Source of the DNA: Candidatus Hydrogenedentota bacterium
Lineage (GTDB): Bacteria > Hydrogenedentota > Hydrogenedentia > Hydrogenedentales > CAILVY01
Assembly (NCBI GenBank): GCA_029565395.1
Contig: JAKQOG010000022.1
Span: 1 to 19,168 of the forward strand
DNA length: 19,168 nt
Direction of reading: 5' to 3'
Part shown: positions 1-19,168 of the stretch, one piece after another
Position numbering within the stretch: position 1 is the stretch's first letter
Layout: each line of letters begins with the position of its first letter
Notes under the pieces: generated by a model
What the model saw: only the letters and a program-made list of their open reading frames with translations
Databases searched by the model: none
What the model was told of the DNA's origin: nothing
Program-made: the position numbers and the translations under genes

Positions 1-1
1 G

Positions 2-1180: not shown

Positions 1181-1221
1181 GGAGTGTCATACTAATTATT
1201 CCAGGCAATCGCTATCAAGCC

Positions 1222-1284
1222 GGGAGGGGAGGAGGCGTGAGGGGGAGAATAGGACCAATAGGACCAATAGGACCGATAAGACCC
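1222..1284. repeat. 9-bp-periodic tandem array, degenerate GGGAGGNNN units followed by (ATAGGACCA)x3-4
   Basis: Units read off directly: gggagggga, ggaggcgtg, agggggaga, ataggacca, ataggacca, ataggaccg, ataagaccc. The 23-mer gggagaataggaccaataggacc (1243-1265) recurs at 14589-14611 with one mismatch. It lies in the divergent intergenic region between the LtaS-like gene (minus strand, start 1180) and secA (plus strand, start 1504). Confidence 0.8.
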
Positions 1285-1503
1285 TTTAAGCGCAGTGGGG
1301 CAAGGGGGGAGAAGTGCAAGAGGGTATGAAATGGGAAACAATGTCAATTTTGATGCCGATATGGATTTTTATGCGACATGGTATGGCACGATATACGATA
1401 TTCTCTTTATGCATAGGGTCCATGTTTTGGGAATTGTTTTAACGAACCCCTCTGCTTTGATATCATAGGTGCAGATAACCTGTATGAAAGAAGGTAAAGC
1501 AGC

Positions 1504-4251: not shown

Positions 4252-5717
4252 TCCTGCGTCTGGGCATAACCTTGTTTTGGCTCGTCATGATGGGTATTTT
4301 GGCGTATCGCGAGGTTGTCGTTCCCTGGCTGAATACGAGCCATCTCCCGCCCCGCCCGAATACGCCGATGGATCTCTGGCTGGGCATCTATGGAGGGGGA
4401 AATGCATCGGAACGGATTGGTTTTTTAAATGCGCGCAGTACTCCGGAGGTTCGCAGTGGGACGGTTGGCGTCAGCATGGGGTTGTCTGCGCGCATGGAAT
4501 TGCCCGTGTTCAGTGAAAACACGATGTTTACCCTCCACGGTTCTGCATGGATGTCGAATGCACGGGGTCTTTCGGAGTTTGATTTTACGTTTGGATCCGG
4601 CGGGCATGAAATGCGGGTTCAAGGTGAAGTGAAGGATAATCGCCTGAAGGCGAGTTTGGAGACGGGCGGGGAGAGTCTTCCTTTTGAATTACCGGTGAGC
4701 GATGAGTTATTGCTTTCCGGGGGGATGGGCATGTCCGCGTTTGACGTGCCTCTTCTTGATCCTGGCACAGAGATATATGTGGATGCCTTTGATCCCACGA
4801 CGATGTCTTTGGGCAAGGCGAAAATTACATGTGTTGGCAAGGAGGAGATATCTCTGCACGATGGGAAAACAGAGGCGTTTCTTGTCACGACCAGTATTGG
4901 CGGCATAACCAGCCGTGCGTGGCTTGCTGCCGATGGCGAAGTATTGCAGGTGGAGACGCCGTTTGGATTCACGTTAAAGAAGATCAGCCCGCAGGAAGCG
5001 ATGAGTCCGGTGTCACCCGGTGAAAATGCGGATTTGGTGCGCAGCTTTGCGATTCGGCCCAAAGGGGTCACTCCGAAACGGGACGCGGTGATGATGCGCG
5101 TGAAATTTTCGGGAGTGGAGGAGAAACATCTGCCTCCCAGTGATGCGGTGCAGACCCGTACTCCGGCAGGATATATAATTACGGTTCCGGAGGCGCCGGT
5201 GAAAGATCCAGGCGCCGCGCTCAGTGAGGAAGATCGCGCGCGCTATTTGCAGAGCGATGTGTTTGTTACGTCGGACCATCCGAAGATCCGGGAGGCCGCC
5301 GCGAATGCGGTGCGTGAGGAAACGGATCCCTGGAAACAAGCGGTTCGGTTGCATGACTGGGTGTTTTTGCGGGTGAAAAAAAAGCCCGTACTCAGCATTC
5401 CCACGGCCCTGGATGTTCTTCAGAGTCTTGAAGGCGACTGTAATGAACATGCAGTGCTCTTTGTGGCGATGGCGCGGGCGGTACAGATTCCTGCGCGGAT
5501 TGCGGTGGGTGTTGTGTGGAGTGAAGAGTTTGGTGCGTTTGGCTATCATGCATGGGCGGAGGTTTTTGTGGGAGACTGGATTCCGATGGATCCCACGTTT
5601 GGACAATTGGTGGCGGACGCCACGCATATCAAGCTGTTAAATGGCGGGATAGATCAATGGCCCCGTCTGCTTCCGCATATCGGGGCCATGCAAATTGAAG
5701 TACTGGAAGTTCGCTAG
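4227..5717 (+). CDS. Membrane-anchored transglutaminase-like (Cys-His-Asp) superfamily protein
   Basis: 496 aa. The N-terminus has the basic stretch RQKRR followed by a TM helix (ILRLGITLFWLVMMGILAY). The C-terminal domain carries the transglutaminase-like catalytic triad context: GDCNEHAVLFVAMARAV (Cys), GYHAWAEVFVGD (His), WIPMDPT (Asp). The ATG at 4227 lies inside the last codons of secA in the +1 frame, a 25-nt overlap. The alternative ATG at 4287 would cut the TM helix in half. Confidence 0.75.
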   Translation: MLRQKRRIILRLGITLFWLVMMGILAYREVVVPWLNTSHLPPRPNTPMDLWLGIYGGGNASERIGFLNARSTPEVRSGTVGVSMGLSARMELPVFSENTMFTLHGSAWMSNARGLSEFDFTFGSGGHEMRVQGEVKDNRLKASLETGGESLPFELPVSDELLLSGGMGMSAFDVPLLDPGTEIYVDAFDPTTMSLGKAKITCVGKEEISLHDGKTEAFLVTTSIGGITSRAWLAADGEVLQVETPFGFTLKKISPQEAMSPVSPGENADLVRSFAIRPKGVTPKRDAVMMRVKFSGVEEKHLPPSDAVQTRTPAGYIITVPEAPVKDPGAALSEEDRARYLQSDVFVTSDHPKIREAAANAVREETDPWKQAVRLHDWVFLRVKKKPVLSIPTALDVLQSLEGDCNEHAVLFVAMARAVQIPARIAVGVVWSEEFGAFGYHAWAEVFVGDWIPMDPTFGQLVADATHIKLLNGGIDQWPRLLPHIGAMQIEVLEVR

Positions 5718-5720
5718 GAA

Positions 5721-7280
5721 TTACTTGGGTTGTGCGTCCTTGTTTGCCTCGGCACTTTTCCCAGCTTCTTCATCTACGATTTTTGCGATTGAGTCGGGGA
5801 ATTGCACGCCGGCGATGTCTTTCATGGTGTGCAGGAGCGGGGGAACGACGCCGGCGAGATTGCTGAGGAAATTGGCGGTGGCGTTTTTGCCATTGGCGCC
5901 CGCGCCGCCGTCCCAGACGACGACTTTGTCGAATTTCACACCGGCAATGGCTTTGGCGGATTCTTCGGCCAGTTTATCCAAGTGTTCCAGCATGAGCATC
6001 TGGAAGGCGTTGTCGGAACCGCCGCAGGCGTCCACGATCTGGCGTAAACCATCGGCCTTTTGACGCAGTATCTCGAATTGACCGCGGGCCTGAGCCTCCA
6101 GTTTTGCGAAGATAGCCTTGGCCTCGCCTTCGGCTTCGATGCGCCGCTTTTCGGCTTCCGCTTCGGCCTCCACGATGATCTGGGCTTTCTGTGCTTTTGC
6201 GGGGGCTTCCAATTCCGCGCGGCGTTCCGCTTCCACCTTGGTTGCTTCCGCCAAGGCTGCTTTGGCCAACGCCAAGTTGCGCGCTTCCAATACAGCGGCT
6301 TTGGAGACTTCGGTTTGGGTTTCCGCGCGCTGGAAGGCTTCGGCTTCGCGCACCTTTAGTTCCGCGTTCGAGACGGCAATGGTGGCTTTGGCGGTATTTT
6401 CGCCTTCCACGGCTTTAGCGTTCGCGGCAGAAACGGAGACGCGCATGTCACGTTCGGCTTCTTTGATTTGTGCATCCCGTTGAAATGCTGCATTGGATTG
6501 GCCGACTTTTTCTGATTTTTCCAGTTCGGCGACTTGTACGGATTGATCGCGTTGAGCGGAGCGGATGCCGATGATCTGTGATTTCTGTGCTTCGGCGACT
6601 TGCACTTCTTTTTCACGGACGTTTTGGGCCACGCGGATTTCGCCGAGTTTTTCCTGTTCCGCCACGTCCGCGCGGGCCTGTTGCACGGCTTCGGAGGCCG
6701 CTTTCCGTCCGATGGCGTCGATATAGCCGGAGTTGTCGCTGATGTCGGTGATGTTGACGTTGATCAGCACCAGACCGATCTTGCGCAATTCGGGTTCAAG
6801 CGAGTTTTGGATGCTGGTGAGGAAGTGTTCGCGGTCCCGGTTAATTTCCTCGATGCGCATGGATGCGATGACCTGGCGCAATTGACCGAAGATGATGTCT
6901 TCGGCCTGTTTCTTGATTTGCGGCTGGGTCAGCCCCAAGAGGCGGATGGCCGCATTGTTCATGATTACGGGATCGGTCCCGATGGCCACGGTGAATACGC
7001 TGGGGACGTTTACGCGGATGTTTTCCAGCGAGAGGGCGTCTTTGAGCGGGACGTCAATCTGGATGGGTTCCAGGCTCAAATAGGCGTAGTCCTGGATGAG
7101 GGGGATGACAAAGGCGGCGCCGCCGTGGATGCATCGTGCGGATCCGCTGCCGCCGACTTTGCCGTAGATAACCATGATTTGATTGCTGGGGCAGCGTTTG
7201 TAGCGGGAGGACAGCATGATCAGGAAACTGGTGAATAGGATGGCGGCGAGGGCCGCGATGGCGATTATCCAGGCAAACAT
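5721..7280 (-). CDS. Flotillin-like SPFH/band-7 protein (YqiK/FloT-like)
   Basis: 519 aa. It has an N-terminal TM helix (MFAWIIAIAALAAILFTSFLIML). An SPFH domain follows, then a long Ala/Glu-rich coiled coil (EAEAEAEKRRIEAEGEAKA...). An AAGGAG SD sits 6 nt upstream of the ATG at 7280. The stop is only 3 bp from the convergent stop of the transglutaminase-like gene. Confidence 0.88.
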   Translation of the reverse strand: MFAWIIAIAALAAILFTSFLIMLSSRYKRCPSNQIMVIYGKVGGSGSARCIHGGAAFVIPLIQDYAYLSLEPIQIDVPLKDALSLENIRVNVPSVFTVAIGTDPVIMNNAAIRLLGLTQPQIKKQAEDIIFGQLRQVIASMRIEEINRDREHFLTSIQNSLEPELRKIGLVLINVNITDISDNSGYIDAIGRKAASEAVQQARADVAEQEKLGEIRVAQNVREKEVQVAEAQKSQIIGIRSAQRDQSVQVAELEKSEKVGQSNAAFQRDAQIKEAERDMRVSVSAANAKAVEGENTAKATIAVSNAELKVREAEAFQRAETQTEVSKAAVLEARNLALAKAALAEATKVEAERRAELEAPAKAQKAQIIVEAEAEAEKRRIEAEGEAKAIFAKLEAQARGQFEILRQKADGLRQIVDACGGSDNAFQMLMLEHLDKLAEESAKAIAGVKFDKVVVWDGGAGANGKNATANFLSNLAGVVPPLLHTMKDIAGVQFPDSIAKIVDEEAGKSAEANKDAQPK

Positions 7281-7349
7281 ACATATCTCCTTGTGTTGAA
7301 CTCTATCTAAAACCGGGGGAAAGGCGGGATACCTTTTCCACGTTTACCC

Positions 7350-7946
7350 TTATACGACTTTTTTCATGTGCTTTACTTCGACGGTGTTTTCATTCACAAT
7401 GCCGGTCACAATCACATCGCTGCCGGTTGGAATGGATACTTCTTCGTCGGTGAAGGCTTCATATTCCATGGAACGGTTCTGGACGGCGACGGTCACCTTG
7501 CCTGCGCCGGTCCGTTTTGCCGGGATGGTTAGATACACTGTAGCGGTCATGCCCAAGGCGTTTTCAATGCGAACCGTGCCTTCGGCGTGCAGGGTCATGA
7601 AGAGATGCATTACCCAGGCTACCAGAATCATGGCGGCGACGCCGGCAGACAGTGCGAGGGAAAAGGCAAAGAACGAGGGCAGGCCGGCGGACATTCCCAA
7701 TCCGCCGCCCAGTCCGAAAAAGGTGATGGAGGCCACCATCGATCGGAAGCTGACCAGTTTGAAAAACCAGGAGGAATCGTGTGTATCGCCACCATGATGC
7801 TCGGTGGCGTGGGCGCCGTCATGCATGTCGAAGTGTTCCGAACCATCCGCCATGCCATGGTGGTCCAACCCGATTAGGGCGAGGATGAACTGGATGGTCA
7901 GAATAATTCCGCCGGCCACCGCACACACTGCATATAGGGTAAACAT
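7350..7946 (-). CDS. NfeD-like membrane protein (short form, C-terminal OB-fold), cotranscribed partner of the flotillin gene
   Basis: 198 aa from the ATG at 7946, which is preceded by GGGAGAG 6 nt upstream. There are TM helices (MFTLYAVCAVAGGIILTIQFILALIGL; ...MVASITFFGLGGGLGMSAGLPSFFAFSLALSAGVAAMILVAWV). A His-rich loop follows (HHGMADGSEHFDMHDGAHATEHHGGDTHDS). The C-terminal beta-rich tail is ...TVYLTIPAKRTGAGKVTVAVQNRSMEYEAFTDEEVSIPTGSDVIVTGIV, which fits an NfeD OB-fold. The gene lies 69 nt upstream of the flotillin gene, the classic NfeD-flotillin pairing. The track's longer ORF (to 8207) uses a TTG and runs through the 9-mer array. An alternative in-frame ATG lies at 8024. Confidence 0.75.
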   Translation of the reverse strand: MFTLYAVCAVAGGIILTIQFILALIGLDHHGMADGSEHFDMHDGAHATEHHGGDTHDSSWFFKLVSFRSMVASITFFGLGGGLGMSAGLPSFFAFSLALSAGVAAMILVAWVMHLFMTLHAEGTVRIENALGMTATVYLTIPAKRTGAGKVTVAVQNRSMEYEAFTDEEVSIPTGSDVIVTGIVNENTVEVKHMKKVV

Positions 7947-8092
7947 CGGCTTTCTCTCCCATTTCCGGCACGTTGGTGTTCTGGTTTTCACCGGTATTAC
8001 AACCATACTAAGGAAAATATTCATACTCGTCAATGTATTCTTTTGGGCTGGGATGGAAACGGTTGGTTGAGAATATTCCAGGACGATAGCAT

Positions 8093-8200
8093 GGGAAGAC
8101 TGGGAGGACTGGGAAGACTGGGAGGACTGGGAGGACTGGGAGGACTGGGAGGACTGGGAGGACTGGGAGGACTGGGATGGATAAATGGGATGAAATGGTT
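8093..8200. repeat. Perfect 9-bp tandem array (GGGAGGACT/GGGAAGACT) x9, decaying into degenerate 9-mers
   Basis: Nine contiguous units span 8093-8173 (gggaagact, gggaggact, gggaagact, then gggaggact x6). Degenerate units follow: gggatggat, aaatgggat, gaaatggtt. The array sits in a divergent intergenic region between NfeD (minus strand) and sulfatase 1 (plus strand). The unit resembles the downstream gene's own RBS context (tgggaggtgact ATG at 8291-8305). Confidence 0.9.
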
Positions 8201-8302
8201 TAGGCAAGGGGAATCTTTAATTTTTAGCATTGTTGACCTGTTATGGCTGGAGTTTGTAAAGTGAGGATAGGATAGAAGCTCGAAATTACTTGGGAGGTGA
8301 CT

Positions 8303-9745
8303 ATGATGACTGTATCGTATACGCGTCGGGAAGCTCTGAACCGGATGGCCATTCTGGGTGCATTGGGTTTACTTGGAGGGCAGGGGGGCGCCTCCGCCAA
8401 GACTAAACCATTGCCCAATATTCTGTTTATCATGTCGGATGATCATGCGGCGCATGCGATAGGGTGTTATGGGAGCAAGGTGAATCAAACGCCGAATATT
8501 GATCGCATTGCGAAAGAAGGGATGCGTTTTGAGCATTGTTTGTGCTCTAACGCGATTTGCGGCCCGAGCCGAGCGGTGATTTTGACTGGGAAGTACAGTC
8601 ATATTAATGGATTTCGCACGAATAGCGACAAGTTTGACGGTTCGCAGCAGACCTTTCCCAAGTTGTTACAAAAGGCGGGGTATGCGACCGCGATCATCGG
8701 GAAGTGGCATCTGGTGAGTCCACCGACGGGATTTGATTATTGGAACATTCTTCCGGGCCAGGGGGATTACGTGGATCCAGTGTTGATTGAAATGGGGGAG
8801 AAGAAAAAGCATCAAGGGTATGTGACGGATCTTATCGCCGATTTTACGATGGAGTTCATCCGCAAGCGGGATAAGAATAAGCCGTTTTGCGTGATGTGCC
8901 ATAACAAGGCGCCGCACCGGAATTGGATTCCCGATGCCAAGCATGCGGATATGTATAGCGACCCCATTCCGGTTCCGGAAACGTTTGATGATGATTACCA
9001 GGGGCGAAGCCCAGCGGCGGCACGTGCGGAGATGCGTGTTGCGCGTGACATGACGCCGAAGGATCTGAAAGAGAACCCGCCGGAGGGTCTTGAAGGCGAA
9101 GCGCTGGCACGATGGAAGTATCAGCGGTACATGGAAGATTATCTGCGGGTAGTGGCATCGGTGGACGATAATGTGGGGCGGTTGTTGGATTTTCTGGATG
9201 CGGAAGGGTTGCGCGACAATACGCTGGTGATCTATACATCGGACCAGGGATTTTTCCTGGGGGATCATGGATGGTTCGACAAGCGGTTCATGTTTGAGGA
9301 ATCGTTGAAGATGCCGTTGCTGGCGCGTTGGCCCGGGGTCATTGAACCTGGCACCGTGAACGAGGATATGGTGTCGAATATGGATTTTGCGCCGACGTTT
9401 TTAGCGTGCGCGGGGATAGAAACGCCGGGGGACATGCAGGGGCACTCCATGATGCCGATTTTGAAGGGAAAGCATCCTAATGATTGGCGAAAGACGTTTT
9501 ATTATGAGTATTTTGAGTATCCGGCAGTGCACAGTGTGTATCCGCATTATGGGGTGTGCACGAAAAAGCATAAGCTGATTCATTATGTGTACAAGGAGGA
9601 GATTGATGCGTGGGAGCTTTTTGATCTCGAAAAGGATCCGCATGAAATGCACAGTGTGTATGACGATCCCGCGTATGCCGACGTGGTGAAGGAGTTGAAG
9701 GGGGAGTTGGCAAGATTACGGAAGGAATTGAAGGTACCAGCGTGA
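8303..9745 (+). CDS. Cys-type sulfatase (formylglycine-dependent) with Tat signal peptide
   Basis: The start is ATG 8303 with a GGGAGGTG SD 5 nt upstream. The track's GTG at 8297 is less likely. Tat-like N-terminus: TRREALNRMAILGALGLLGGQGGASA. The sulfatase signature is NILFIMSDDH ... CSNAICGPSRAVILTGKY (C-x-P-x-R), followed by IGKWHL. Confidence 0.88.
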   Translation: MMTVSYTRREALNRMAILGALGLLGGQGGASAKTKPLPNILFIMSDDHAAHAIGCYGSKVNQTPNIDRIAKEGMRFEHCLCSNAICGPSRAVILTGKYSHINGFRTNSDKFDGSQQTFPKLLQKAGYATAIIGKWHLVSPPTGFDYWNILPGQGDYVDPVLIEMGEKKKHQGYVTDLIADFTMEFIRKRDKNKPFCVMCHNKAPHRNWIPDAKHADMYSDPIPVPETFDDDYQGRSPAAARAEMRVARDMTPKDLKENPPEGLEGEALARWKYQRYMEDYLRVVASVDDNVGRLLDFLDAEGLRDNTLVIYTSDQGFFLGDHGWFDKRFMFEESLKMPLLARWPGVIEPGTVNEDMVSNMDFAPTFLACAGIETPGDMQGHSMMPILKGKHPNDWRKTFYYEYFEYPAVHSVYPHYGVCTKKHKLIHYVYKEEIDAWELFDLEKDPHEMHSVYDDPAYADVVKELKGELARLRKELKVPA

Positions 9746-9776
9746 GCAAGATTTGCGTGGTTATGAGTACATTGAT

Positions 9777-11216
9777 TCATGGAGAATACGGCACGGTTCC
9801 GGTTTTGTCTACTGTGTAGCCGAATTGCTGGATGTATTTCTCGGCGGGGAGGAAGCGGTCGTTGCGTTCGTTAAGTTTTTGTTGGAGCAAGTCGTCCAGT
9901 TGGTGTTGAATGGCTGAATTTTCCGGGGAATTACACAGATTTTTTTGTTGATAGGGATCGGCTTCATTGTCGAAGAGGAGCCAAGGGCCGTTCAGGTCGC
10001 GTACGTACGTGTATCGGAGGGTGCGAATCCCGCGGCATTCACGGCCGCCTTGCTTTCGGGTCCATTCGCCGAAGGGGGCCATGCACAGTAATAGGGCGGC
10101 GTCTACTTGAGGATCTTCACCCTGTAAAAGCGGTGTGGAGAGATCCTTGCCTTCCACGGTGGACGGAATGGGAACAGCACACAGACCCAGAAGGGTGGGC
10201 ATGATGTCCGGGGCATTAAGCAATGTGGGAACGTTGCGTCCTTTTGTGCCGAGGCGCGCGGGATAACGCAGGAGAAACGGAACGCGGAGGGATTCGTCGT
10301 AGGGTTTTTGTTTTCGAATCATGCCTTGGGAAAACAGCATGTCGCCATGATCGGACGTGAAGACGAACACGGTATTTTCCGAGAGGCGGCATTCGTCCAG
10401 AGTGGCGAGGAGATCGCCGATGCAGTCGTCCAAGGCACAGATATGTGCATAATATCCCGCGAGATCTCGCCGAGCTTCTTTTTCCGAGGCTTCGGGGACA
10501 TTCGGGCGCAATACCAGTTTCTCCGAAGTAATGCGTTTTTGGCAGGATTCCGGGGCGGTTTCGTAGGGGTTGTGGGGCGGCCCCCAGGAGAGAAATAGTG
10601 CAAAGGGCCGATCAGTGGCATGGTTGCGGACGTACTGTTGGGCCTCGCGGGTTTGCGCAATTGCATCATAGCCTTCCCATTCTTTAGGCACTGGTTCGTC
10701 GGCATAGTATTTTGAATGGTTGTAGTCGTGGGTGCATTCCTGGACCCGCCAATACTGAAATCCCTGGCGGTGTTCGGGGGGAATGAAACTGGAGCGGCCA
10801 TGGCCTTCCAGATGCCATTTGCCGATATAGGCGGTGTCGTACCCGGATCCTACGAGGGCTTCCGCGATACTCACGGCGTCGTCGCGCAGGTGGACGTCGT
10901 TTAAGAACACTCCGTGGGTTTGCCAGTATTGTCCGGTCAACAAACTGGCGCGATAGGGGGAGCACACGGGACATCCGGAAACGGCATGGGTGAAATTCAG
11001 GCTTTGCGCCGCCAGTTGGTCCAGGTGGGGTGTTAGCGCGTTGGGATCGCCTGCGTACCCGGTGGCTTGCGCGCGCCATTGATCCGCAAACACAAATACG
11101 AGATTCGGCGGTTTCGTTCCGGAAGTTTTTGCGGATTCAATAGCAAAAGTACCTGGAGATATGGCCAAGCCGGCAGCCCCGGCGGCAAGGGTATTTAAAA
11201 ATTCACGGCGTTTCAT
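9777..11216 (-). CDS. Cys-type sulfatase with Tat signal peptide
   Basis: 479 aa. The N-terminus MKRREFLNTLAAGAAGLAISPGTFA is a twin-arginine motif. The signature is LVFVFADQWR ... SGCPVCSPYRASLLTGQY (CxPxR) and IGKWHL. It is convergent with sulfatase 1, 31 bp apart. Confidence 0.88.
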   Translation of the reverse strand: MKRREFLNTLAAGAAGLAISPGTFAIESAKTSGTKPPNLVFVFADQWRAQATGYAGDPNALTPHLDQLAAQSLNFTHAVSGCPVCSPYRASLLTGQYWQTHGVFLNDVHLRDDAVSIAEALVGSGYDTAYIGKWHLEGHGRSSFIPPEHRQGFQYWRVQECTHDYNHSKYYADEPVPKEWEGYDAIAQTREAQQYVRNHATDRPFALFLSWGPPHNPYETAPESCQKRITSEKLVLRPNVPEASEKEARRDLAGYYAHICALDDCIGDLLATLDECRLSENTVFVFTSDHGDMLFSQGMIRKQKPYDESLRVPFLLRYPARLGTKGRNVPTLLNAPDIMPTLLGLCAVPIPSTVEGKDLSTPLLQGEDPQVDAALLLCMAPFGEWTRKQGGRECRGIRTLRYTYVRDLNGPWLLFDNEADPYQQKNLCNSPENSAIQHQLDDLLQQKLNERNDRFLPAEKYIQQFGYTVDKTGTVPYSP

Positions 11217-11247
11217 GGTATCTAAAAACCTTAAAGATTTATATTGT

Positions 11248-11277
11248 TAATCACTACTACTTTCTTTTCACGAGAAA
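11248..11277. other. Perfect 13-bp inverted repeat / stem-loop (CTACTTTCTTTTC-acga-GAAAAGAAAGTAG) between two sulfatase genes, with no U-tract on either side
   Basis: Both arms were read directly and their reverse complement verified. The element lies in the 83-bp spacer between the sulfatase at 11300..12937 and the sulfatase at 9777..11216, both on the minus strand. Confidence 0.6.
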
Positions 11278-11299
11278 AGAAAGTAGCAAAGAAAAGCGG

Positions 11300-12937
11300 T
11301 TATTTGAGGACGTCTCCTGGTTTATCGGGAAAGCCTTTGACTCCTCGTGAGTGATCGAACTGATATATCCGTTGCATGGGACGATCTTGCGGGGGCAAGA
11401 CGAGCAGATTGCCGTCTTTGTTGAGTGCACGTTTGACATTGGTACGGGACAGCGCTTTTGCGGCCACTTTGCGCAGGCGTTTGGCCACTTCGGAGTCAGT
11501 GGTAATCCGTTGCTTCAACTCGTTCGGGTCATCTTTCAGATTAAAGAGCTGTTCCAAACCGCCGTTGGCCATGAAGATGTATTTCCAATTGCCTTCGCGC
11601 ACCATGACCTTGAAGAGATTCTTGCCGGGCATGCCGTAATAGCCGATGAGGTGTTCGCGGCCTTTCGCGTTTCCTTTCGCTAGATCGAGCACATTTATGC
11701 CTTCGCGCAGTTCCGGATTTCCCGAAGCGGACGTGGCGATTCCGAAGAGATCCGTCAGGGACACGAGGGCATCGTTTTTCACGTTGGCAGGCAACTGTTC
11801 CGGCCAACTGACCAGGAAGGGGACGTGGCATGCGGCCTCGAAGAAACTTTCTTTCTGCCAGGAGTAATGATCGCCGAGATGATCGCCATGATCGGAAAAG
11901 AAGCAAATCAGAGTATTCGCGGCATCGCCGCGCGCCTCTACGGCATCGAGAATCCGGCCAAGACACTGATCGATATAAGAAATTTCGCCGTAATACCGCG
12001 CTTTGAGCACGCGCGCATGGGAATCATTGATGTCCTCCGCCCAGATGGCGTGATTCATCCAGCGGAGTTGTTCATCCATCAGGTCGACGGCCTTGTCGCC
12101 CCGAATGGGATCCGGCATGCGGTCGGGATCGTACATACGGTTGAAGGGAATAGGGGGCGCGAGTGGGGGATGGGGGCCGATGAAGGATACAAGGCCGAAA
12201 TAGGGGCGTGGGTCTGATTGTGCGATCTGCTCGACGGCACAGTCGGCGGCCCATGCTTCCACGCCGAATGCAGCGGGGAGGGGACTCATCTGGGGCATGT
12301 AATACATTTCCGTGCGCTCGCCCATGAGCCCTTCAACGAAATCGTATTCGGGGTGTTTCTCCCGAATAAACGTTGCGTATGAATCACGATTACGTTGATC
12401 CGGAGAGCCGTAGAGTTCTTCGCTGTGCCGATGCACTTCATAGCCGACGTCTTCATCCCAGGGATGGGTATGGAATTTTCCGATGCCGAAGGTGCGGTAG
12501 CCGCGTTGAGTCATCGTGCGTGCGAGATAGGGTCCGCAACGGTCTTCATTTTTTTCGGGTTGGCCCTCGACGAGTTTTGGTCCAGCATTTGAATAGACGC
12601 CCGTAGTGGGCGCGTCACAGCCGGTACGGATGGTCAATCGGGCGGGAACGCATACGGGGCAGGGCGAATAGGCATTGGTGAACGCGATGCCGCGCGCCAC
12701 GAGCCGGTCGTAATTTGGCGTGTAGATGTGCGGATTGCCCAGCGCGGCGATGGTGTCCGCACGCTGCTGATCCGTCATGATGAACAGGATGTTGGGGGGA
12801 TGGCTGGACGGTGGGGCGGGGGGTGGTGCACCTTCTTTCGCTGTGGCGGTGAGGGAGGTGGCCGCGGCGGCGGTGAGAATGCCTAAAAACTCACGGCGCT
12901 GGAGCATTCCCTGTGTGGGGGAAGAAGGTTTATGCAT
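11300..12937 (-). CDS. Cys-type sulfatase with Tat signal peptide
   Basis: 545 aa. The ATG at 12937 has an AAGGAAA SD about 5 nt upstream. The Tat motif is QRREFLGILTAAAATSLTATA. The signature is NILFIMTDQQR ... YSPCPVCVPARLTIRTG (CxPxR) and IGKFH. Confidence 0.85.
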   Translation of the reverse strand: MHKPSSPTQGMLQRREFLGILTAAAATSLTATAKEGAPPPAPPSSHPPNILFIMTDQQRADTIAALGNPHIYTPNYDRLVARGIAFTNAYSPCPVCVPARLTIRTGCDAPTTGVYSNAGPKLVEGQPEKNEDRCGPYLARTMTQRGYRTFGIGKFHTHPWDEDVGYEVHRHSEELYGSPDQRNRDSYATFIREKHPEYDFVEGLMGERTEMYYMPQMSPLPAAFGVEAWAADCAVEQIAQSDPRPYFGLVSFIGPHPPLAPPIPFNRMYDPDRMPDPIRGDKAVDLMDEQLRWMNHAIWAEDINDSHARVLKARYYGEISYIDQCLGRILDAVEARGDAANTLICFFSDHGDHLGDHYSWQKESFFEAACHVPFLVSWPEQLPANVKNDALVSLTDLFGIATSASGNPELREGINVLDLAKGNAKGREHLIGYYGMPGKNLFKVMVREGNWKYIFMANGGLEQLFNLKDDPNELKQRITTDSEVAKRLRKVAAKALSRTNVKRALNKDGNLLVLPPQDRPMQRIYQFDHSRGVKGFPDKPGDVLK

Positions 12938-12963
12938 GGCATTTTCCTTTTTGCGCGAGGCTA

Positions 12964-14364
12964 TTACACTGTAGGCACAGTAAATGGATCTTCAGCGTTT
13001 TTCAAGGCTTCGATTAATTGAGCGTTTAGATCTTTTCGGATCTTGGCGAATTCGGGATCATCAATGAGGTTTTTCAGTTGCAGGGGATCTTCCTGGTTGT
13101 CGAACAGGCACCAGGGTTTGTCAGGGTAGACGGCGTAGGTGTAGCGGGGCGTGCGCAGTCCGCGAAAGAGGGGCGCGGGATGATTCTCGCCGCCGGAGGC
13201 GTTTTTCTTGGAGATGTGCATGATAAGCTGTGCGTCGGGCGCGGGACCAGTTTTCCCAAGCATCCACGGGGAGAAATCCTGTCCGCCGCATCCCGGTGGC
13301 GCACTGAGGCCCGCGAGGCTGCATAGGGTGGGCAGGATGTCAATGGCGCCGAATAATGCATCGCACCGCGTGCCGGGCGGGATGATGCCGGGGCCTCGAA
13401 TAAAAAACGGCACACGGATGGATTCTTCGTAGGGTTGGCGTTTGCTTCCCAGTCCATGGCTTCCCATCATGCTGCCGTGATCGGAGGTGTACACCACGAT
13501 GGTGTTTTCGTTGAGGCCGAGTTCGGAAAGCGTGGCCAGAAGACGGCCCAGTTCATCGTCGATGGCGCTGATGTGCGCGTGGTAGCCTTGGTAATAGGGC
13601 CAAGTGTTCTTTCCCCATATTTTTGCGTCGTCCGCCTTTCCTTTTTGGATTTCCTCCGGAACATTTCCGCGCCAGGGGAGGGAGCCTTCCGGATACAGCG
13701 CCTTCTTTTCCGGGGGTGGATCGAGGAAATTGGAGTGAGGGGGATGCAGGGAGAGCATCAGGAAAAAGGGATTGTCTTTATTGTTGCGGATGAACTGCAG
13801 CGCCTGATCGGTCATCAGGGTAGCGTTGTAGCCTTTGGGCTGAACCGGTTTGCCGTCACGCGGATGATATCTCCCGTGATCCCAATGGATGTTTTCATCG
13901 GTCCAGATGAGGGAGGTGTCAAAGCCGAAGGATTCCGCGCGCACGCCGCCGAGATGCCATTTGCCGACGTAGCCCGTTTTATATCCGGCGGATTTAAAGG
14001 TTTTGCCGAGGGTGGGGAGAGCATCGCTCAGTTGGATATTGTTGTCGATCATGCCGGTTTGATAGGGCCAGCGGCCGGTCATCAGTATGGCGCGATAGGG
14101 TGTGCAGACGGGGTAATTGCTGATGCAATGGGTGAAGGTTGCGCCTTCTTTGGCCATGCGGTCCATGACAGGGGTATGGAGTTGCGGCATTTCCGAGCAG
14201 GCCATGGACTGCCAGCGGTGCTCGTCGCTGAAGGCATAGATCACGTTGGGTTTTCGGGGGGATTGCGCGTGGGCGGAGGCGCCGAGGGCGGTCAAGGCGG
14301 CCACACCCGCCACGCGGCCCATGAATTCGCGCCGGGGCATGTCTTTTGAGGATCGAAAGTTCAT
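12964..14364 (-). CDS. Cys-type sulfatase with Tat signal peptide
   Basis: The track ORF begins with a TTG at 14382. The first ATG is at 14364 with an AAGGAA SD about 6 nt upstream, giving MNFRSSKDMPRREFMGRVAGVAALTALGASAHA. The signature is NVIYAFSDEHR ... SNYPVCTPYRAILMTGRW (CxPxR) and VGKWHL. A 26-bp gap separates it from the next sulfatase, consistent with co-transcription. Confidence 0.85.
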   Translation of the reverse strand: MNFRSSKDMPRREFMGRVAGVAALTALGASAHAQSPRKPNVIYAFSDEHRWQSMACSEMPQLHTPVMDRMAKEGATFTHCISNYPVCTPYRAILMTGRWPYQTGMIDNNIQLSDALPTLGKTFKSAGYKTGYVGKWHLGGVRAESFGFDTSLIWTDENIHWDHGRYHPRDGKPVQPKGYNATLMTDQALQFIRNNKDNPFFLMLSLHPPHSNFLDPPPEKKALYPEGSLPWRGNVPEEIQKGKADDAKIWGKNTWPYYQGYHAHISAIDDELGRLLATLSELGLNENTIVVYTSDHGSMMGSHGLGSKRQPYEESIRVPFFIRGPGIIPPGTRCDALFGAIDILPTLCSLAGLSAPPGCGGQDFSPWMLGKTGPAPDAQLIMHISKKNASGGENHPAPLFRGLRTPRYTYAVYPDKPWCLFDNQEDPLQLKNLIDDPEFAKIRKDLNAQLIEALKNAEDPFTVPTV

Positions 14365-14543
14365 AGCCGGTTCCTTGTTCAATAGTGATTGTACCCACTG
14401 CTGGGGAGGCGATCAACGTATTATCGAGGGAAATAGGTGAAGATGATTGTTTTCTGCCACCCCTCCAGGATGGTTTGTTTATGGGGGGGGCCGGGGGTAT
14501 CGCTTCGCTCAACCCCTGGCTTTCGGACAGTACGGCAACGCTG

Positions 14544-14624
14544 GGGGTGAGTGGGAGGACTGGGAGGACTGGGAAGGCTGGGAAGGCTGGGAGAATAGGA
14601 CCAATAAGACCTATAAGACCTATA
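14544..14624. repeat. 9-bp-periodic tandem array, (GGGAGGACT)x2, (GGGAAGGCT)x2, GGGAGAATA, GGACCAATA, (AGACCTATA)x2
   Basis: Units read directly from 14553 onward. The array contains the 23-mer gggagaataggaccaataagacc, shared with 1243-1265. It lies upstream of sulfatase 4 (minus strand) at the left edge of the AT-rich islet. A G8 homopolymer sits 55 bp to its left, at 14483-14490. Confidence 0.85.
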
Positions 14625-14789
14625 AAAGGGAGCGTGTATCAGGGGGTGGACTGAATTTGAGGAGGGAGTGAGGCAGCCGCTGTATATTGCATTTTCAGTA
14701 TGAAACCTTTTTGTTGTCAGGGGAGTCTTAAGGGTGTATTCAGTCGGGATGCATTGAGGTTCAGAGGAATTTTTCAGCATGTTTATTCT

Positions 14790-14990
14790 ATGCGTGTATC
14801 TAGTGTTTTTTTCGCCGGAGTCGCGGTAGCGGTGGTGTTGGTGGGGCTGGCGCATGCTGCTCCCGAGAAAAAACAGCGCACTCTCACGGTTGACTGCGCC
14901 GATACGTTTTTTAATAGGAGGCATGCTTGGTGTGAATCGATGGCTGTTTTTTACGCTATATCACATCGGATCGGCCAGAGGATGTTCTAA
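14790..14990 (+). CDS. Hypothetical small secreted protein (66 aa) with a signal peptide
   Basis: The internal ATG at 14790 gives MRVSSVFFAGVAVAVVLVGLAHA|APEKKQRTLTVDCADTFFNRRHAWCESMAVFYAISHRIGQRMF, a textbook n-h-c signal peptide with an AHA-A cleavage site and a roughly 43-aa mature part with 2 Cys. The RBS is weak (AGAGGA 22 nt upstream). It overlaps a competing minus-strand ORF (14421..14924) that I consider less likely. Confidence 0.3.
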   Translation: MRVSSVFFAGVAVAVVLVGLAHAAPEKKQRTLTVDCADTFFNRRHAWCESMAVFYAISHRIGQRMF

Positions 14991-15157
14991 ATCAGTATCC
15001 TCCATTTCACCAGGAGGAAATTTTCAGGATTCACGCGTAGCCGGTGGTAACGTTGGTGGCTGAGAGTGTTCTTTGAGTTCATTTTCATCGCTGCGATCAT
15101 TTGTGGCCATGCGGGGCATGTGAGGGCATGTGAGTCCTAATGAGTAACAAAGAACGC

Positions 15158-15589
15158 CTATAACAACTCAATTTTTTGAGTTCGGCAAACATCTATGAAA
15201 TCTTCCGCATTAAATGTAAGCAAAGCATCCTTTTTTATGGTGATGTCGTCTAGAACAAGACGTATTACCATGTCCGCAAGCGCGATAACTCTTTTTTTTG
15301 ATTTGGACCATCGAAGAGTAATCTCAAGAGCTTTGTCCCGGTATGGTGTATCATCTATGCGCAAGAAATGAGGCTGACGCAGCAAGGATTCAAACCGTAC
15401 GACCTGATGTGGTTTTTTGCAAAAACGTGTATTAATGGTTTCGTAAAGCGATGGCCAAGGCACCAGGACATTCATCTGTGCCAATACATTTTCTTTTTCC
15501 CCCGCCTGTGCATGGTACTGGTCTCTTGGATCAAATAAAGCGAACCAAAATCCGGTGTCCACAACAATACTTTTCGTAAATCTACTCAT
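15158..15589 (-). CDS. PIN-domain ribonuclease (VapC-like toxin family)
   Basis: 143 aa. The N-terminal SIVVDTGFWFALFDPRDQYHAQA follows the canonical VapC pattern (first Asp in the DT motif, ALF-x-D-xx-H-xx-A). Further acidic positions appear in LYETINT and ALADMVI. The C-terminal LLTFNAEDFIDV is the T-x-N-xx-DF PIN signature. Its ATG overlaps the stop of the upstream gene by 8 nt (ATGAGTAG). The local sequence is AT-rich. Confidence 0.75.
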   Translation of the reverse strand: MSRFTKSIVVDTGFWFALFDPRDQYHAQAGEKENVLAQMNVLVPWPSLYETINTRFCKKPHQVVRFESLLRQPHFLRIDDTPYRDKALEITLRWSKSKKRVIALADMVIRLVLDDITIKKDALLTFNAEDFIDVCRTQKIELL

Positions 15590-15902
15590 CCGTGTCTTCT
15601 ATATCTTCTGCAGATACGGCGTACCCGGTCCATGGGGCAGTTTTTCGGGAACCTGTAATGAAAGTTCCTTTCATTTTTCCATTCGCGAGATGAATCACAT
15701 ATAACCGGGAACGTCCGTTGAGATGAACATGAGATGCCAAATCTTTCTTGAGAGCGTCAATAAGATCTCCGGAGTGTTCAAATCTCAAACACGCCAAGCT
15801 ATCCCCGCATTCTTTGGCCTCATGGTTGTCCAACCAGGAATATAGCGCCTCATAATCTCCTTGAACGCCTAAATCAAAGGAAAACCAGATAAAACTTTTC
15901 AT
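15582..15902 (-). CDS. Uncharacterised 106-aa protein, upstream translationally coupled partner of the PIN nuclease (candidate noncanonical antitoxin or co-effector)
   Basis: The ATG at 15902 is preceded by a strong GGAGGTG SD 4-5 nt upstream. The track's longer start at 15992 lacks one. The protein is MKSFIWFSFDLGVQGDYEALYSWLDNHEAKECGDSLACLRFEHSGDLIDALKKDLASHVHLNGRSRLYVIHLANGKMKGTFITGSRKTAPWTGYAVSAEDIEDTDE. I see no RHH, AbrB/SpoVT, Phd/YefM or HTH-like N-terminus. The hydrophobic N-terminal strand ending in FDL, a helix, ECGDSLACLRFE, a helix, then SRLYVIHL is reminiscent of the Cas2/VapD ferredoxin-like b1-a1-b2...a2-b4 pattern. This is an inference from memory, not an alignment. The acidic C-terminal tail (EDIEDTDE) is typical of labile antitoxins. 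Confidence 0.6.
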   Translation of the reverse strand: MKSFIWFSFDLGVQGDYEALYSWLDNHEAKECGDSLACLRFEHSGDLIDALKKDLASHVHLNGRSRLYVIHLANGKMKGTFITGSRKTAPWTGYAVSAEDIEDTDE

Positions 15903-15953
15903 AAAACACCTCCTCGAAAAACATTCTAGCACACCTATTGTTATGTTGCAATC

Positions 15954-15968
15954 TTGAATGATTTTCAA
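15954..15968. promoter_or_regulatory. Short palindrome TTGAA-tgatt-TTCAA in the divergent promoter region, a possible operator
   Basis: The inverted 5-bp arms were read directly. The element lies about 52 bp upstream of the start of the partner-PIN operon and about 105 bp upstream of the oxidoreductase start. Confidence 0.2.
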
Positions 15969-16073
15969 AGCGTTTATAAGGCACATTTTCACATGGGTCT
16001 GTGCTGCTTTCTTTACTCACATATGCGAAAAAGTACATACTGGCACGTTGTGTTAATCAGAAGGAGACATTTC

Positions 16074-17261
16074 ATGCGTGTAACACGAAGAGGATTTATG
16101 GGACAGACGGCGGCGGCCGTGCTTGCCGCGCAAACGTTGGCCAAGGCGCAGACCGATCCGGCGGCCGCGCCGAAATTGCGTGCGTGCGTGATTGGCGACG
16201 GGAAACAGGGCGTGTATGGGCACAGCATGCATCTCGCATTTGCTACGCGGGATGACGTGGAAGTGGCGGGGCTTGCGGACCCGGTTGAGGAAACGCGTGC
16301 GAAGGCGGCGGCATCGTCCAAGGCGCAGCGCACGTATGCGGACTACCGGGAGATGCTGGAGAAGGAAAAACCGGATCTGGTGGTAGTTGGGCCGCGTTGG
16401 ACGATTCATCACAAGGAATACCTGCTTGCGGCGGCGGCGGTTGGCGCGCATGGGTTTATGGAAAAGCCGGTCAGTCATGATTTGGCTGAAGCCGATGATA
16501 TGGTCCGTGCGATTGAGGAAAAGAACCTGAAGTGGGCTGTTGCCTATAATTTCCGGGCTTCCGCCCAGCTCGCGCATGCGCGCCGCATGATTATGGAGGA
16601 GGGCATCATCGGGGATGTGCTGGAAATTCGCGGCCGCGGGAAGGAGGACGAGCGCGCCGGAGGAGAGGATCTGATTGTGCTGGGAACGCATTCGTTTGAC
16701 GCCATGCGTTATTTCCTGGGCAATCCCTTGTGGTGCGAATCGGATATCACGGTGGAGGGACGGGCTGCGACGAAAGCGGATGTGCATGAGGCTACGGAGC
16801 CGGTGGGGCCCATTATGGGCGACCGCATCAGGGCCATGTTTGGCTTTCCGAACAGCATTGCAGGCTATTTCTCCACGACGAAGAACACGCATGGCTATGG
16901 CGGGCGCTGGGGATTGGATATTATGGGATCACGGGGCATGGTGACCATCCGGATCAACGGCGGCATCAATATCTGGCTGCTGCGCGATCCCGCATGGGCT
17001 CCGGGCGGGCGTGATAAGGTGTGGGAACCACTGCCTGATATGCCGGTGTTCGAAGAGAAACGTCCTGAAATAGAACGCAACGCACCGATTGTGTCGGATC
17101 TGATCGCGGCGATTAAGGAGAATCGCCTGCCCAAGGTAAGCCTGCAGGATGGGCGGGATTCGACGGAGATGATTCACGCGGTGTATGAAGCGTATCTGCA
17201 TGGCGGGCGGGTGGCGTTCCCTATGAAAGATCGAACCCATCCGCTTACACGGCCCGCGTGA
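16074..17261 (+). CDS. Gfo/Idh/MocA-family NAD(P)-dependent oxidoreductase with a Tat signal peptide
   Basis: The start is ATG 16074 with an AAGGAG SD 7 nt upstream, not the track's 15954. The Tat N-terminus is MRVTRRGFMGQTAAAVLAAQTLAKA. The Rossmann start is LRACVIGDGKQGVYGHSMHLAF. The family-typical EKP motif appears in HGFMEKPVSHDLAEADDM. Confidence 0.85.
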   Translation: MRVTRRGFMGQTAAAVLAAQTLAKAQTDPAAAPKLRACVIGDGKQGVYGHSMHLAFATRDDVEVAGLADPVEETRAKAAASSKAQRTYADYREMLEKEKPDLVVVGPRWTIHHKEYLLAAAAVGAHGFMEKPVSHDLAEADDMVRAIEEKNLKWAVAYNFRASAQLAHARRMIMEEGIIGDVLEIRGRGKEDERAGGEDLIVLGTHSFDAMRYFLGNPLWCESDITVEGRAATKADVHEATEPVGPIMGDRIRAMFGFPNSIAGYFSTTKNTHGYGGRWGLDIMGSRGMVTIRINGGINIWLLRDPAWAPGGRDKVWEPLPDMPVFEEKRPEIERNAPIVSDLIAAIKENRLPKVSLQDGRDSTEMIHAVYEAYLHGGRVAFPMKDRTHPLTRPA

Positions 17262-17283
17262 AGGAGATCGGGATTCGGGGCCC

Positions 17284-17325
17284 GATAGCGATAGCGATAG
17301 CGATAGCGATGCTAATTCTGATGCT
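17284..17325. repeat. Hexamer tandem repeat (GATAGC)x4 followed by degenerate units (GATGCT, AATTCT, GATGCT)
   Basis: Read directly: cccgatagcgatagcgatagcgatagcgatgctaattctgatgct. It lies in the 3' intergenic region between convergent genes. A GATAGC copy also directly abuts the 9-mer array at 8085-8090. Confidence 0.8.
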
Positions 17326-17405
17326 CTGTCATAGATAGTGGATTAGACATTGTACAGGACTTACGGCACTTGTTTTATGTAACAAAAGGCACACAGAACA
17401 TGAAA

Positions 17406-17445
17406 AAGGCCGCTGGACTCGAAGGAATCCAGCGGCCTTGCGCTT
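17406..17445. terminator. Rho-independent terminator hairpin (GGCCGCTGGA-loop-TCCAGCGGCC), strong for the minus-strand gene and weaker for the plus strand
   Basis: A perfect 10-bp GC-rich stem (17408-17417 and 17428-17437) is extendable by two A-T pairs. On the minus-strand transcript it is followed by UUUUUCAUG, and it lies 20 nt downstream of the TAA of the Ig-like protein gene. On the plus strand it is followed by UUGCGCUUU. Confidence 0.75.
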
Positions 17446-17457
17446 TAGTCTAGGTGC

Positions 17458-19168
17458 TTATTTTTTCCTGCGGATTCGGAGGACGCCCAGCCCGCCGGCC
17501 AATGCGGCCAACGCGGCCAGACCCGTTATGCTCGCCACAGGAATACTGTAACCGACTTTCAGGGTGGCTTCAGAGGTAATGGTTTTCCCTGCGCCATAGG
17601 TACTATCGGCTTCTGAGACTTCTACCATGTACAGGCCGTCATCGGAGGTATCCGGGGCGATGAAATCCACGTAAGAGGTGTATACGCCCAAATCCTGCCA
17701 TGCCTTTGCTCCGTCGTCTTTGAACCAGCCATACGAGACGGGTTCAAGGCCGCCTTTCACGGTCACAGACCATCGATAGTCTTCATTTAACGGAATGGTG
17801 GTATCTTGCAGCGGTTTCTCGAACTCAATGTGATCGGCGAACTCTACCGAACCGTTTGTTGAACATGCGGTATCGACTGCATCTGTAATGCAGACCCGAT
17901 AGTCATAAAGGCCCTGTTCGCCCGCTGGATTCACTGTCAGGACCACGGAGTTACCTTCGATGAATTCCGTGAAAACGCCCAGAGAAGTTTCATCCGGGGT
18001 GCCCGATGGATTGCGCAGCCATTCGTAGCTGGCCGGGAACAAACCACCTTCAAACATGGCATCCATGACAAACGGCGGCTCGTCCGAATACACTCTGAAA
18101 TCGCCGGGATTCCGAGTGTACGTGATGGGAGTGCCGACATACAGGAGGGCGGTTTGAGAGGTTAAGGTGGTCGGGCCGGAAATCGTGCTGCCCTGGTCCA
18201 CCGCTACCACGTCAAAGGCATGCCCATTATCATCCGCAATGGTCACGATGCCCAGATCCAGCGTGGAGTTGTCCGGCGCCCCCATGGGAACACCGCCTTC
18301 ACGCCAAGTATGGACGAGCGGCAGGAAGCCTCCCGAAATGCCAACGCTGAGTTGGACGTTGGTGCCTTCGTAGACGTACACATCCGACAGATTGGTCACG
18401 ATGACCGGTGCATTTGCCACACTCACCACACTGGGTCCGAGTGTGATTGGCGGATTGGCCGGGCTGGTATCATCCACGACCACCGTGTACGAGCCGATAT
18501 CGCCGGCATCGGCGGTTCCCAGATTCAATGTGATGTTACTGGGAGCGCCCGGAATAGGCGTGCCGCCCTTGCTCCAGGTGAAGCTATAGGGGGGCACTCC
18601 ATTGTCCACCGTTGCGGTAATGGCGAGCGCTTCGCCTGTATACGCGCGAATCTCAGCAGGCAATGAACCGTTCATATGAATCGTTACGGTCAAGGATGCG
18701 GAATTTGAGGTGACGGACTGCGGGGTTGGTGTTCCGCTATCGCTTACCGTAACCCGATAGTTTCCTGCGTCCATGACGCCATCGCCGCTGAGTTCAATGG
18801 ACAAGGTATCCGTGTCCGCGCCCGATACCTGGGAGCCGGAACCGGACACGTGGTCTCCATTGGTGATGGTTACCCATGAGCCGCCATGATACCATTTCCA
18901 TTCGTAGTGTAACGGTTGAAGGCCGCCGCGTTCATTGGTTACGACATTGAACTGGGCGGTTTCATACTCGTTTTTGGTGGTGTTTTGCGGATGCTGCGTG
19001 ATAGCGAGGTTATTCCTCACGTACAGTACACCGTATTCAGACTGTATGCTGTCTCCGGTGTCATTCAGCAAACAGTAATAGCTGCCTTCGGCGTTGAACC
19101 CGAGACTGGTCAGGTTCAGCGTGGAGGTGCGGCCTGCCGTCACAATGGCAACGTTGGTGGAGGAATCA
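17458..19168 (-). CDS. Large surface/adhesin-like protein of tandem Ig-like domains with a C-terminal TM helix plus basic tail. Partial: the N-terminus is outside the window.
   Basis: At least 570 aa in the window, with at least five repeats of about 90 aa. Each carries the Ig-like pattern Y-x-W...G...L-x-L...D-x-G-x-Y-x-V (YEWKWYHGG; YSFTWSKGGTPIPGA...IGSYTVVVDD; HTWREGGVPMGAP; YEWLRNPSGTPDE...GLYDYRVCITD; YGWFKDDGAKAWQD...DGLYMVEVSE). One repeat has an N-terminal ...AEGSYYCLLND. The extreme C-terminus GLAALAALAGGLGVLRIRRKK is a TM helix plus a basic cluster, the architecture of PEP-CTERM-like sorting signals or a tail anchor. No PEP motif is seen. Confidence 0.7.
   Translation of the reverse strand, partial: DSSTNVAIVTAGRTSTLNLTSLGFNAEGSYYCLLNDTGDSIQSEYGVLYVRNNLAITQHPQNTTKNEYETAQFNVVTNERGGLQPLHYEWKWYHGGSWVTITNGDHVSGSGSQVSGADTDTLSIELSGDGVMDAGNYRVTVSDSGTPTPQSVTSNSASLTVTIHMNGSLPAEIRAYTGEALAITATVDNGVPPYSFTWSKGGTPIPGAPSNITLNLGTADAGDIGSYTVVVDDTSPANPPITLGPSVVSVANAPVIVTNLSDVYVYEGTNVQLSVGISGGFLPLVHTWREGGVPMGAPDNSTLDLGIVTIADDNGHAFDVVAVDQGSTISGPTTLTSQTALLYVGTPITYTRNPGDFRVYSDEPPFVMDAMFEGGLFPASYEWLRNPSGTPDETSLGVFTEFIEGNSVVLTVNPAGEQGLYDYRVCITDAVDTACSTNGSVEFADHIEFEKPLQDTTIPLNEDYRWSVTVKGGLEPVSYGWFKDDGAKAWQDLGVYTSYVDFIAPDTSDDGLYMVEVSEADSTYGAGKTITSEATLKVGYSIPVASITGLAALAALAGGLGVLRIRRKK

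Follow-up and report, generated by a model that had tools for sequence, protein, structure and literature searches.

A widespread two-gene module pairs a divergent PIN-domain protein with a predicted Cas2-fold partner and is a candidate toxin–antitoxin system

What is the function of a VapC-like PIN-domain gene when the small gene in front of it encodes none of the DNA-binding domains found in VapB antitoxins? The question is raised by a 19,168-nucleotide (nt) stretch of DNA from a Candidatus Hydrogenedentota bacterium (contig JAKQOG010000022.1, positions 1–19,168; hereafter the window), which harbors two minus-strand open reading frames (ORFs) arranged head-to-tail. The upstream gene, here called A (15582–15902; ATG at 15902, TAG at 15582–15584), encodes a 106-residue putative antitoxin, and the downstream gene, B (15158–15589), encodes a 143-residue putative toxin. 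An earlier note on this DNA had flagged the two as a candidate toxin–antitoxin or defense pair. Our analyses reveal that A and B form a real, widespread, and unannotated two-gene module that is strictly linked and has no conserved third partner. We consider it moderately likely that the module is a VapBC-type, type II-like toxin–antitoxin system in which a new family of Cas2-fold antitoxins takes the place usually held by VapB. This reading draws on the ribosome-binding signal, the gene overlap, and the order of a small upstream gene followed by a PIN gene, on the fold and conserved residues of B, on the linkage of the two genes in both directions, and on the mobility of the cassette.

Genes A and B overlap by 8 nt (ATGAGTAG, 15582–15589, minus strand), a segment that combines the stop codon of A with the ATG of B and implies translational coupling. 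A Shine–Dalgarno sequence, GAGGAGG (15909–15915, minus strand), is located 6 nt 5′ of the ATG of A. Both elements can be read directly from the DNA and had been pointed out in the earlier note, which described the Shine–Dalgarno sequence as strong. Farther upstream on the same strand, a σ70-like TTGCAA-17 nt-TAGAAT element with an extended −10 TG (15923–15951) is positioned as expected for an operon promoter; the promoter scan as a whole did not exceed chance, returning 3 sites against 2.3 expected, and only its position favors this site. No palindromic operator was found 5′ of A in the window.

Comparison with other genomes shows that this arrangement is not peculiar to the window. When one genome per species (~185,000 genomes) was scanned with a pattern, 206 proved to encode an A relative, and 80 A-seeded loci were kept from these. 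These loci span more than 15 phyla, with carriers in the Hydrogenedentes, Latescibacterota, Nitrospirota, Gemmatimonadota, Acidobacteriota, Binatota, Desulfobacterota, Planctomycetota, Spirochaetia, Alpha- and Gammaproteobacteria, Entotheonella, and others. B lies immediately 3′ of A in 77 of the 80, mostly with a gap of −17, −4, −1, or +3 nt, and the remaining three retain an intact A followed by ~20–25 codons of the B N terminus and then a deletion. In the reverse direction, A is directly 5′ of B in all 79 B-seeded metagenome loci with enough upstream sequence, and also in two Bacteroidota B homologs. The co-occurrence with PIN genes on which the idea of a genuine pair had depended thus holds from both sides. 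Across loci, pairwise identity in A also correlates with that in B (r = 0.73). Altogether 82 A homologs of ~100–115 residues were collected, every one annotated as a hypothetical protein and devoid of Pfam domains, and an exhaustive profile search of another database placed the A family in 416 clusters at 50% identity. These numbers, combined with the two-way adjacency, indicate that A and B are not a chance pair of ORFs.

The linkage does not extend to any further gene. All-against-all clustering of the flanking ORFs recovered only A, B, and their antisense shadows, and 150 flanking genes were distributed over 98 Pfam families, none of which was present in more than four genes. No Cas family is found among the 25 most frequent of these 98 families, which are the ones listed. 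Likewise, no association of A with cas1 or CRISPR, or with VapX, VapY, or VapW, was observed, leaving the PIN gene as its sole conserved neighbor.

B is a divergent VapC-like PIN-domain protein, with nuclease activity predicted from its fold and its conserved acidic residues. The motif strings from which a VapC-like PIN domain had first been recognized are present, and the AlphaFold2 (AF2) model of B (predicted local distance difference test score, pLDDT, 91.7) shows the three-layer α/β/α architecture of PIN proteins. Its Foldseek neighbors are Mycobacterium tuberculosis VapC20, PH0500-type PINs, AF1683, VapC15, VapC11, VapBC, FitB, and Shigella VapC, the top matches having a probability of 1.0 and template modeling (TM) scores of 0.55–0.73. 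A B family profile searched against the PDB also ranked VapC20 and AF1683 first, with marginal E-values. At the level of single sequences, B scores 17.1 bits against Pfam PIN (PF01850), under the 23.6-bit cut-off, and 16.9 bits against NCBIfam VapC (NF047959), under the cut-off of 80, while 16 of 50 B relatives match PIN at E ≤ 0.01 (best E, 1.4e-7). Thus, B represents a divergent PIN subfamily.

The acidic tetrad to which the earlier note had tied the PIN assignment, D11, E50, D106, and D130, is conserved in an alignment of 50–70 homologs, in which D11 and D106 are invariant and E50 and D130 are each retained in at least 97%. The additional candidate active-site residue N127 is Asn in 89% and Asp in 11% of homologs. 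Conserved positions that are specific to the B family include a P-W-P-x-L-Y-E-T-x-N-T-R-F motif, D23, D80, R84, D115, and C135. A near-invariant cysteine occurs in both proteins of the pair, at C32 of A, within an ECGDS motif, and at C135 of B, just past the last PIN acidic residue.

A matches no known antitoxin family. Searches of Pfam, NCBIfam, PADLOC, and PHROGs, as well as phmmer and profile searches of the PDB, gave no sequence-family match, and a Pfam scan of 62 A relatives at E ≤ 10 returned none either, Cas2 and VapD included. In particular, no ribbon-helix-helix (RHH), AbrB/SpoVT, Phd/YefM, or helix-turn-helix (HTH) domain was detected in A with Pfam or NCBIfam, or in the 62 relatives at the same relaxed threshold. 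The claim that A lacks a VapB-type DNA-binding N terminus therefore stands, and these searches gave no sign of a divergent member of a known antitoxin family. The A alignment nonetheless contains 14 invariant and 12 near-invariant positions (W6, S8, D10, L11, G12, G15, D16, Y17, Y21, L24, D25, A29, E31, C32, G33, D34, S35, A37, R66, Y68, G79, F81, G84, R86, W91, and G93). Of the representative-library entries, four that look like A fusions (P0216, P0230, P0241, and P0340) proved to be frameshift read-throughs into B and not true fusions. Two further entries, P0242 and P0352, show apparent N-terminal extensions on A that are of uncertain validity.

The AF2 model of A (pLDDT 85.9) contains a strand (residues 2–10), a helix (17–26), a short bridge (30–31), a strand (36–42), a helix (47–58), and a hairpin (66–73/76–83), followed by coil from residue 84, with confidence below 50 at residues 99–106. 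Residues 1–83 are predicted to adopt a Cas2-type ferredoxin-like fold, and Cas2 is the best fold match of the model. Beyond this domain lie a conserved G-x-R-K-x-x-P-W-x-G-Y segment (residues 84–95) and an acidic tail (95–106), which across the family has a mean length of 12 residues, 40% Asp/Glu, and a net charge of −4.5. Residues 84–106 are thus conserved or acidic, yet are predicted as low-confidence coil. The predicted order of a folded N-terminal domain and then a conserved coil of low confidence with an acidic tail follows the classical layout of antitoxins, in which a disordered C terminus neutralizes the toxin; in the model of A, a Cas2-like domain takes the position of the DNA-binding one.

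The Cas2/VapD-type fold that the earlier note had proposed for A is consequently supported as a predicted fold but finds no support in sequence. No homology to Cas2 or VapD (PF09827, PF09707, and VapD) was found in Pfam or by PDB profile search. In hhalign, the A family compared with a Cas2 alignment seeded on SSO1404 gave a probability of 3% (1.6% with relaxed settings), a weak negative given that the alignment holds only 10 Cas2 sequences; its members were confirmed to carry PF09827, so that the alignment is real but shallow. When the two were forced into end-to-end alignment, they were colinear, with D10 of A falling on the catalytic D10 of Cas2. In the A family the invariant D10 closes strand 1 at its C-terminal side, and the turn that leads into the following strand contains S35, conserved in at least 90% of members. 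This predicted placement echoes the Asp/Ser pairs of VapD and BPSL1038, in which the Ser is in the β2–β3 turn, as judged from secondary-structure position and not from superposition. From the strand register, the alternating strand residues W6/S8/D10, S35/A37, R66/Y68, and G79/F81 would all line the same face of the sheet. Because the searches revealed neither sequence homology nor a Cas1 or CRISPR context, we do not file A as a member of the Cas2 family and describe it as an unannotated family that resembles Cas2/VapD in its predicted fold and in the position of a conserved aspartic acid.

The cassette is autonomous and horizontally mobile. In the window it resides in an AT-rich islet (14500–16050, no strand assigned) that stands out in the composition profile at ~45% GC, with a sulfatase gene on one side and a GFO/IDH/MocA gene on the other, and in which no structured RNA, tRNA, or terminator was found. 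The cassette itself has a GC content of 42.6%, compared with 54% for the whole window and 55–63% for its flanks. In 77 of 78 related loci, too, the cassette has a lower GC content than the DNA on either side, with a mean difference of −9 GC points. The AT-rich character that had been taken to suggest horizontal acquisition is therefore a property of the module and not only of this locus. An imperfect 14-nt direct repeat, ATTCTATGCGTGTA / ATTTCATGCGTGTA, flanks the cassette at 14785–14798 and 16069–16082, the second copy spanning the start codon of the GFO/IDH/MocA gene. We considered it as an insertion scar; such repeats occur at a chance-level count in 1.9 kb, and it is probably not one.

Intact pairs are also present in mobile contexts. 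One is carried by the conjugative plasmid pWTk445 of Advenella kashmirensis, beside umuDC, repA, and parA. A second (L169, 5989–6765) is found in a temperate-phage contig of IMG/VR, directly after a CI/CII-like regulator and with primase, tail, and tape-measure genes nearby, which indicates that the module can ride as a moron in a temperate phage; no deposited phage genome carrying the pair was found. A third, in a Bacteroidales metagenome-assembled genome (MAG; L087, 3657–4417), lies in an island with HU-HIG, SocA_Panacea, 23S_rRNA_IVP, KilA-N, and AbiH genes, which is a defense or toxin–antitoxin island context. Neither A nor B matched any PADLOC-DB v2 defense model at E ≤ 1. In the plasmid record (L084, NC_017965.1, 5001–5750), A is annotated as hypothetical, and the intact B frame directly 3′ is missing from the PLSDB gene table, where the locus tags have a gap, RS20760, at B.

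These contexts bear on whether A and B could simply be a PIN RNase and an RRM-like cofactor engaged in housekeeping RNA processing, with no role in conflict or addiction. PIN domains do act in rRNA and tRNA maturation, and W6, Y68, F81, and R66 of A would together resemble an RNA-binding surface on one face of the sheet. A housekeeping pair, however, would not be expected to show so patchy a distribution (206 of ~185,000 species genomes), so variable a genomic context, or a composition AT-rich relative to nearly every host, nor to travel on a plasmid and in a phage or to include a B gene that is so often decayed. We regard this explanation as highly improbable.

The decay of B also bears on which gene encodes the toxin. 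Among 78 A-seeded loci, 12 have a B gene that has been deleted, truncated, or frameshifted, but damage to A was seen in only 1 of 74 B-seeded loci (Fisher p = 0.0024). More frequent decay of B, together with solo intact A genes accompanied by B remnants, would be expected of a toxic B and a protective A. Some of the 12 cases come from long-read MAGs, in which frameshifts may be assembly errors. The same asymmetry argues against the opposite assignment, in which A would be a VapD-like toxin and the PIN-fold B its antitoxin or immunity partner. VapD-type Cas2-fold proteins are indeed known toxins (PMC11980593), and A keeps the Asp/Ser pair. Nevertheless, it is B and not A that is deleted or frameshifted, and in three genomes an intact A stands with only remnants of B, a state that would be lethal were A an unopposed toxin. 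In addition, all PIN catalytic residues of B are strongly conserved, and a small acidic protein encoded first corresponds to the antitoxin-then-toxin order. A reversal of roles thus seems very unlikely.

Several observations weigh against the type II-like reading with B as toxin and A as antitoxin. The decay asymmetry weakens when only clear deletions are counted (5/78 versus 1/74, p = 0.21), and the two samples compared come from different collections. No PADLOC or NCBIfam toxin–antitoxin model was passed by the pair. Palindromes 5′ of A are not clearly enriched over shuffled sequences (149 loci; 5.9 versus 5.4 nt), A is acidic (net charge −4) with no recognizable DNA-binding domain, and B, with a net charge of −2, is not basic. 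Conservation is higher in A than in B, contrary to what most type II pairs show: mean pairwise identity is 51% for A and 43% for B, and A exceeds B in 89% of 2415 pairs. A also keeps an invariant acidic/Ser/Cys cluster (D10, D16, D25, E31, C32, D34, and S35), which resembles an active site or a ligand site more than it does a passive scaffold, and its conserved residues stay intact even where B has been lost.

The conservation of A, and the persistence of its conserved residues after loss of B, are consistent with a module of two enzymes, in which A is itself an active nuclease of the Cas2/VapD superfamily or else a type V-like antitoxin that, in the manner of GhoS, binds or cleaves RNA. In such a module A would act with the PIN nuclease, or on its mRNA or products, possibly as a defense or abortive-infection pair instead of simply sequestering a toxin. 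The Cas2 fold match, the location of D10 at the Cas2/VapD catalytic Asp position with S35 in the turn before the next strand, and the colinear forced alignment are all consistent with this possibility. The Asp/Ser arrangement is also like those of VapD (PMC11980593) and of BPSL1038, with its D11(X20)SST motif (PMC10491678), and the presence of the pair in a temperate phage and in a defense island would suit a conflict function. Against it, the Cas2 profile comparison is not significant, neither Pfam Cas2/VapD models (62 A members) nor PADLOC gave a match, the Asp/Ser equivalence derives from secondary-structure position, and Cas2 itself has a nuclease activity described as weak or dispensable (PMC11980593). 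Overall we view such an arrangement as possible but rather unlikely. Its stronger form, that A belongs to the Cas2/VapD lineage and is functional independently of CRISPR, with a catalytic or nucleic-acid-binding Asp/Ser/acidic pocket, and that the pair is a two-nuclease conflict module instead of a toxin with a passive inhibitor, we find slightly more doubtful still. Under the type II-like reading, which we prefer, the strong conservation of A suggests a neutralization or regulatory mechanism unlike that of a textbook VapB.

Such a toxin–antitoxin mechanism might operate as follows. B would be a Mg2+-dependent endoribonuclease that arrests growth when free, and, like VapC20, its closest structural neighbor, it may act on a tRNA or the 23S sarcin-ricin loop. 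Through translational coupling A would be made first and in excess. It would probably dimerize via its Cas2-like domain and probably neutralize B by covering the PIN active site or RNA groove with its acidic tail and the G84-x-R86-K87-x-x-P-W91-x-G93-Y segment. B would then be set free when the cassette is lost, or when A is degraded following the loss of a plasmid, infection by a phage, or stress.

As in VapBC systems such as M. tuberculosis VapBC20 and FitAB, two small overlapping genes encode an acidic small protein and then a PIN nuclease, the PIN fold of B carries four conserved acidic residues and finds its best structural matches in VapC20, VapC15, VapC11, and FitB, and the distribution is mobile and patchy. 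However, A has neither an RHH, AbrB, Phd, or HTH domain nor a sequence relation to any VapB and is instead predicted to have a Cas2-like ferredoxin fold, B falls under the Pfam PIN and NCBIfam VapC cut-offs, and conservation is greater in the candidate antitoxin than in its partner. With the Cas2/VapD superfamily, including the CRISPR-independent BPSL1038, A shares its size of ~100 residues, its stand-alone state, and, as judged from predicted position, an invariant aspartic acid that ends strand 1 and a serine in the following turn. It differs from that superfamily in having no significant sequence or profile similarity and no Cas1 or CRISPR context, in being partnered always with a PIN protein, and in its family-specific ECGDS and RK..PW.GY motifs and acidic tail.

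Cas2-fold antitoxins have precedents, although with different partners. GhoS cleaves the mRNA of a membrane toxin, GhoT. VapW is an inactivated VapD homolog that has lost the catalytic Asp/Ser and neutralizes VapD (PMC11980593). In contrast to the VapW–VapD and GhoS–GhoT pairs, the partner here is a PIN nuclease, and the Asp/Ser positions of A are invariant or near-invariant. The NetFlax study describes PIN toxins paired with RHH, PanA, and other antitoxins, in a text that does not contain the word "ferredoxin" (PMC10440598). A Cas2-like partner of a PIN toxin was not described in the literature searched, the coverage of which was incomplete, making this an absence of evidence only.

If the type II-like reading is correct, the module would add to VapC/PIN toxins a new antitoxin family that is absent from Pfam, NCBIfam, and PADLOC, and in A it would provide the first Cas2-like fold among PIN partners. 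It would also extend the short list of Cas2/VapD-fold toxin–antitoxin components (VapD, VapW, and GhoS) and thus bear on the proposed toxin–antitoxin origin of Cas2. Were A instead an active enzyme of the Cas2 lineage, it would provide a living example of the toxin–antitoxin-type relatives from which CRISPR adaptation modules are thought to have recruited Cas2. The module is directly testable because it is carried by cultured bacteria, namely Parvibaculum sedimenti HXT-9, Paracoccus xiamenensis 12-3, Rhodomicrobium sp. Az07, and Advenella kashmirensis (on pWTk445).

In the window, a run of sulfatase genes borders the cassette on one side. Across from it, a GFO/IDH/MocA oxidoreductase gene is transcribed divergently, with the gene of an Ig-domain protein beyond. 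Three tandem minus-strand ORFs of 472–545 residues at 9777–14382 adjoin the cassette; Sulfatase and SGSH_C domains are found in two of the three, and in a fourth nearby gene in the database annotation. Together with the oxidoreductase and the Ig-domain gene, this region looks like an ordinary sulfated-glycan utilization locus into which the cassette was inserted. The 775-bp spacer between the sulfatase gene and B contains two neighboring 9-nt tandem arrays at 14552–14625, TGGGAGGAC (4.7 copies) and AATAAGACC (3.6 copies). A database-called 167-residue ORF that covers these arrays (14421–14924, minus strand) has a low-complexity translation and no Pfam match, and is probably spurious.

A contig titled "uncultured Nitrospirales bacterium" (L004, CAYYRW010000065.1) is syntenic with the Hydrogenedentes window across the oxidoreductase, the cassette, and the sulfatase, at 76–82% nt identity, a correspondence that makes its bin label or its binning doubtful. 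Within the spacer, a 42-nt block (14779–14820) is identical to positions ~5901–5942 of that contig, and the remainder of the spacer 3′ of B is not alignable. The block overlaps the start of a 66-residue plus-strand ORF (14790–14990) that has a signal-peptide-like N terminus (MRVSSVFFAGVAVAVVLVGLAHA) and no Pfam match.

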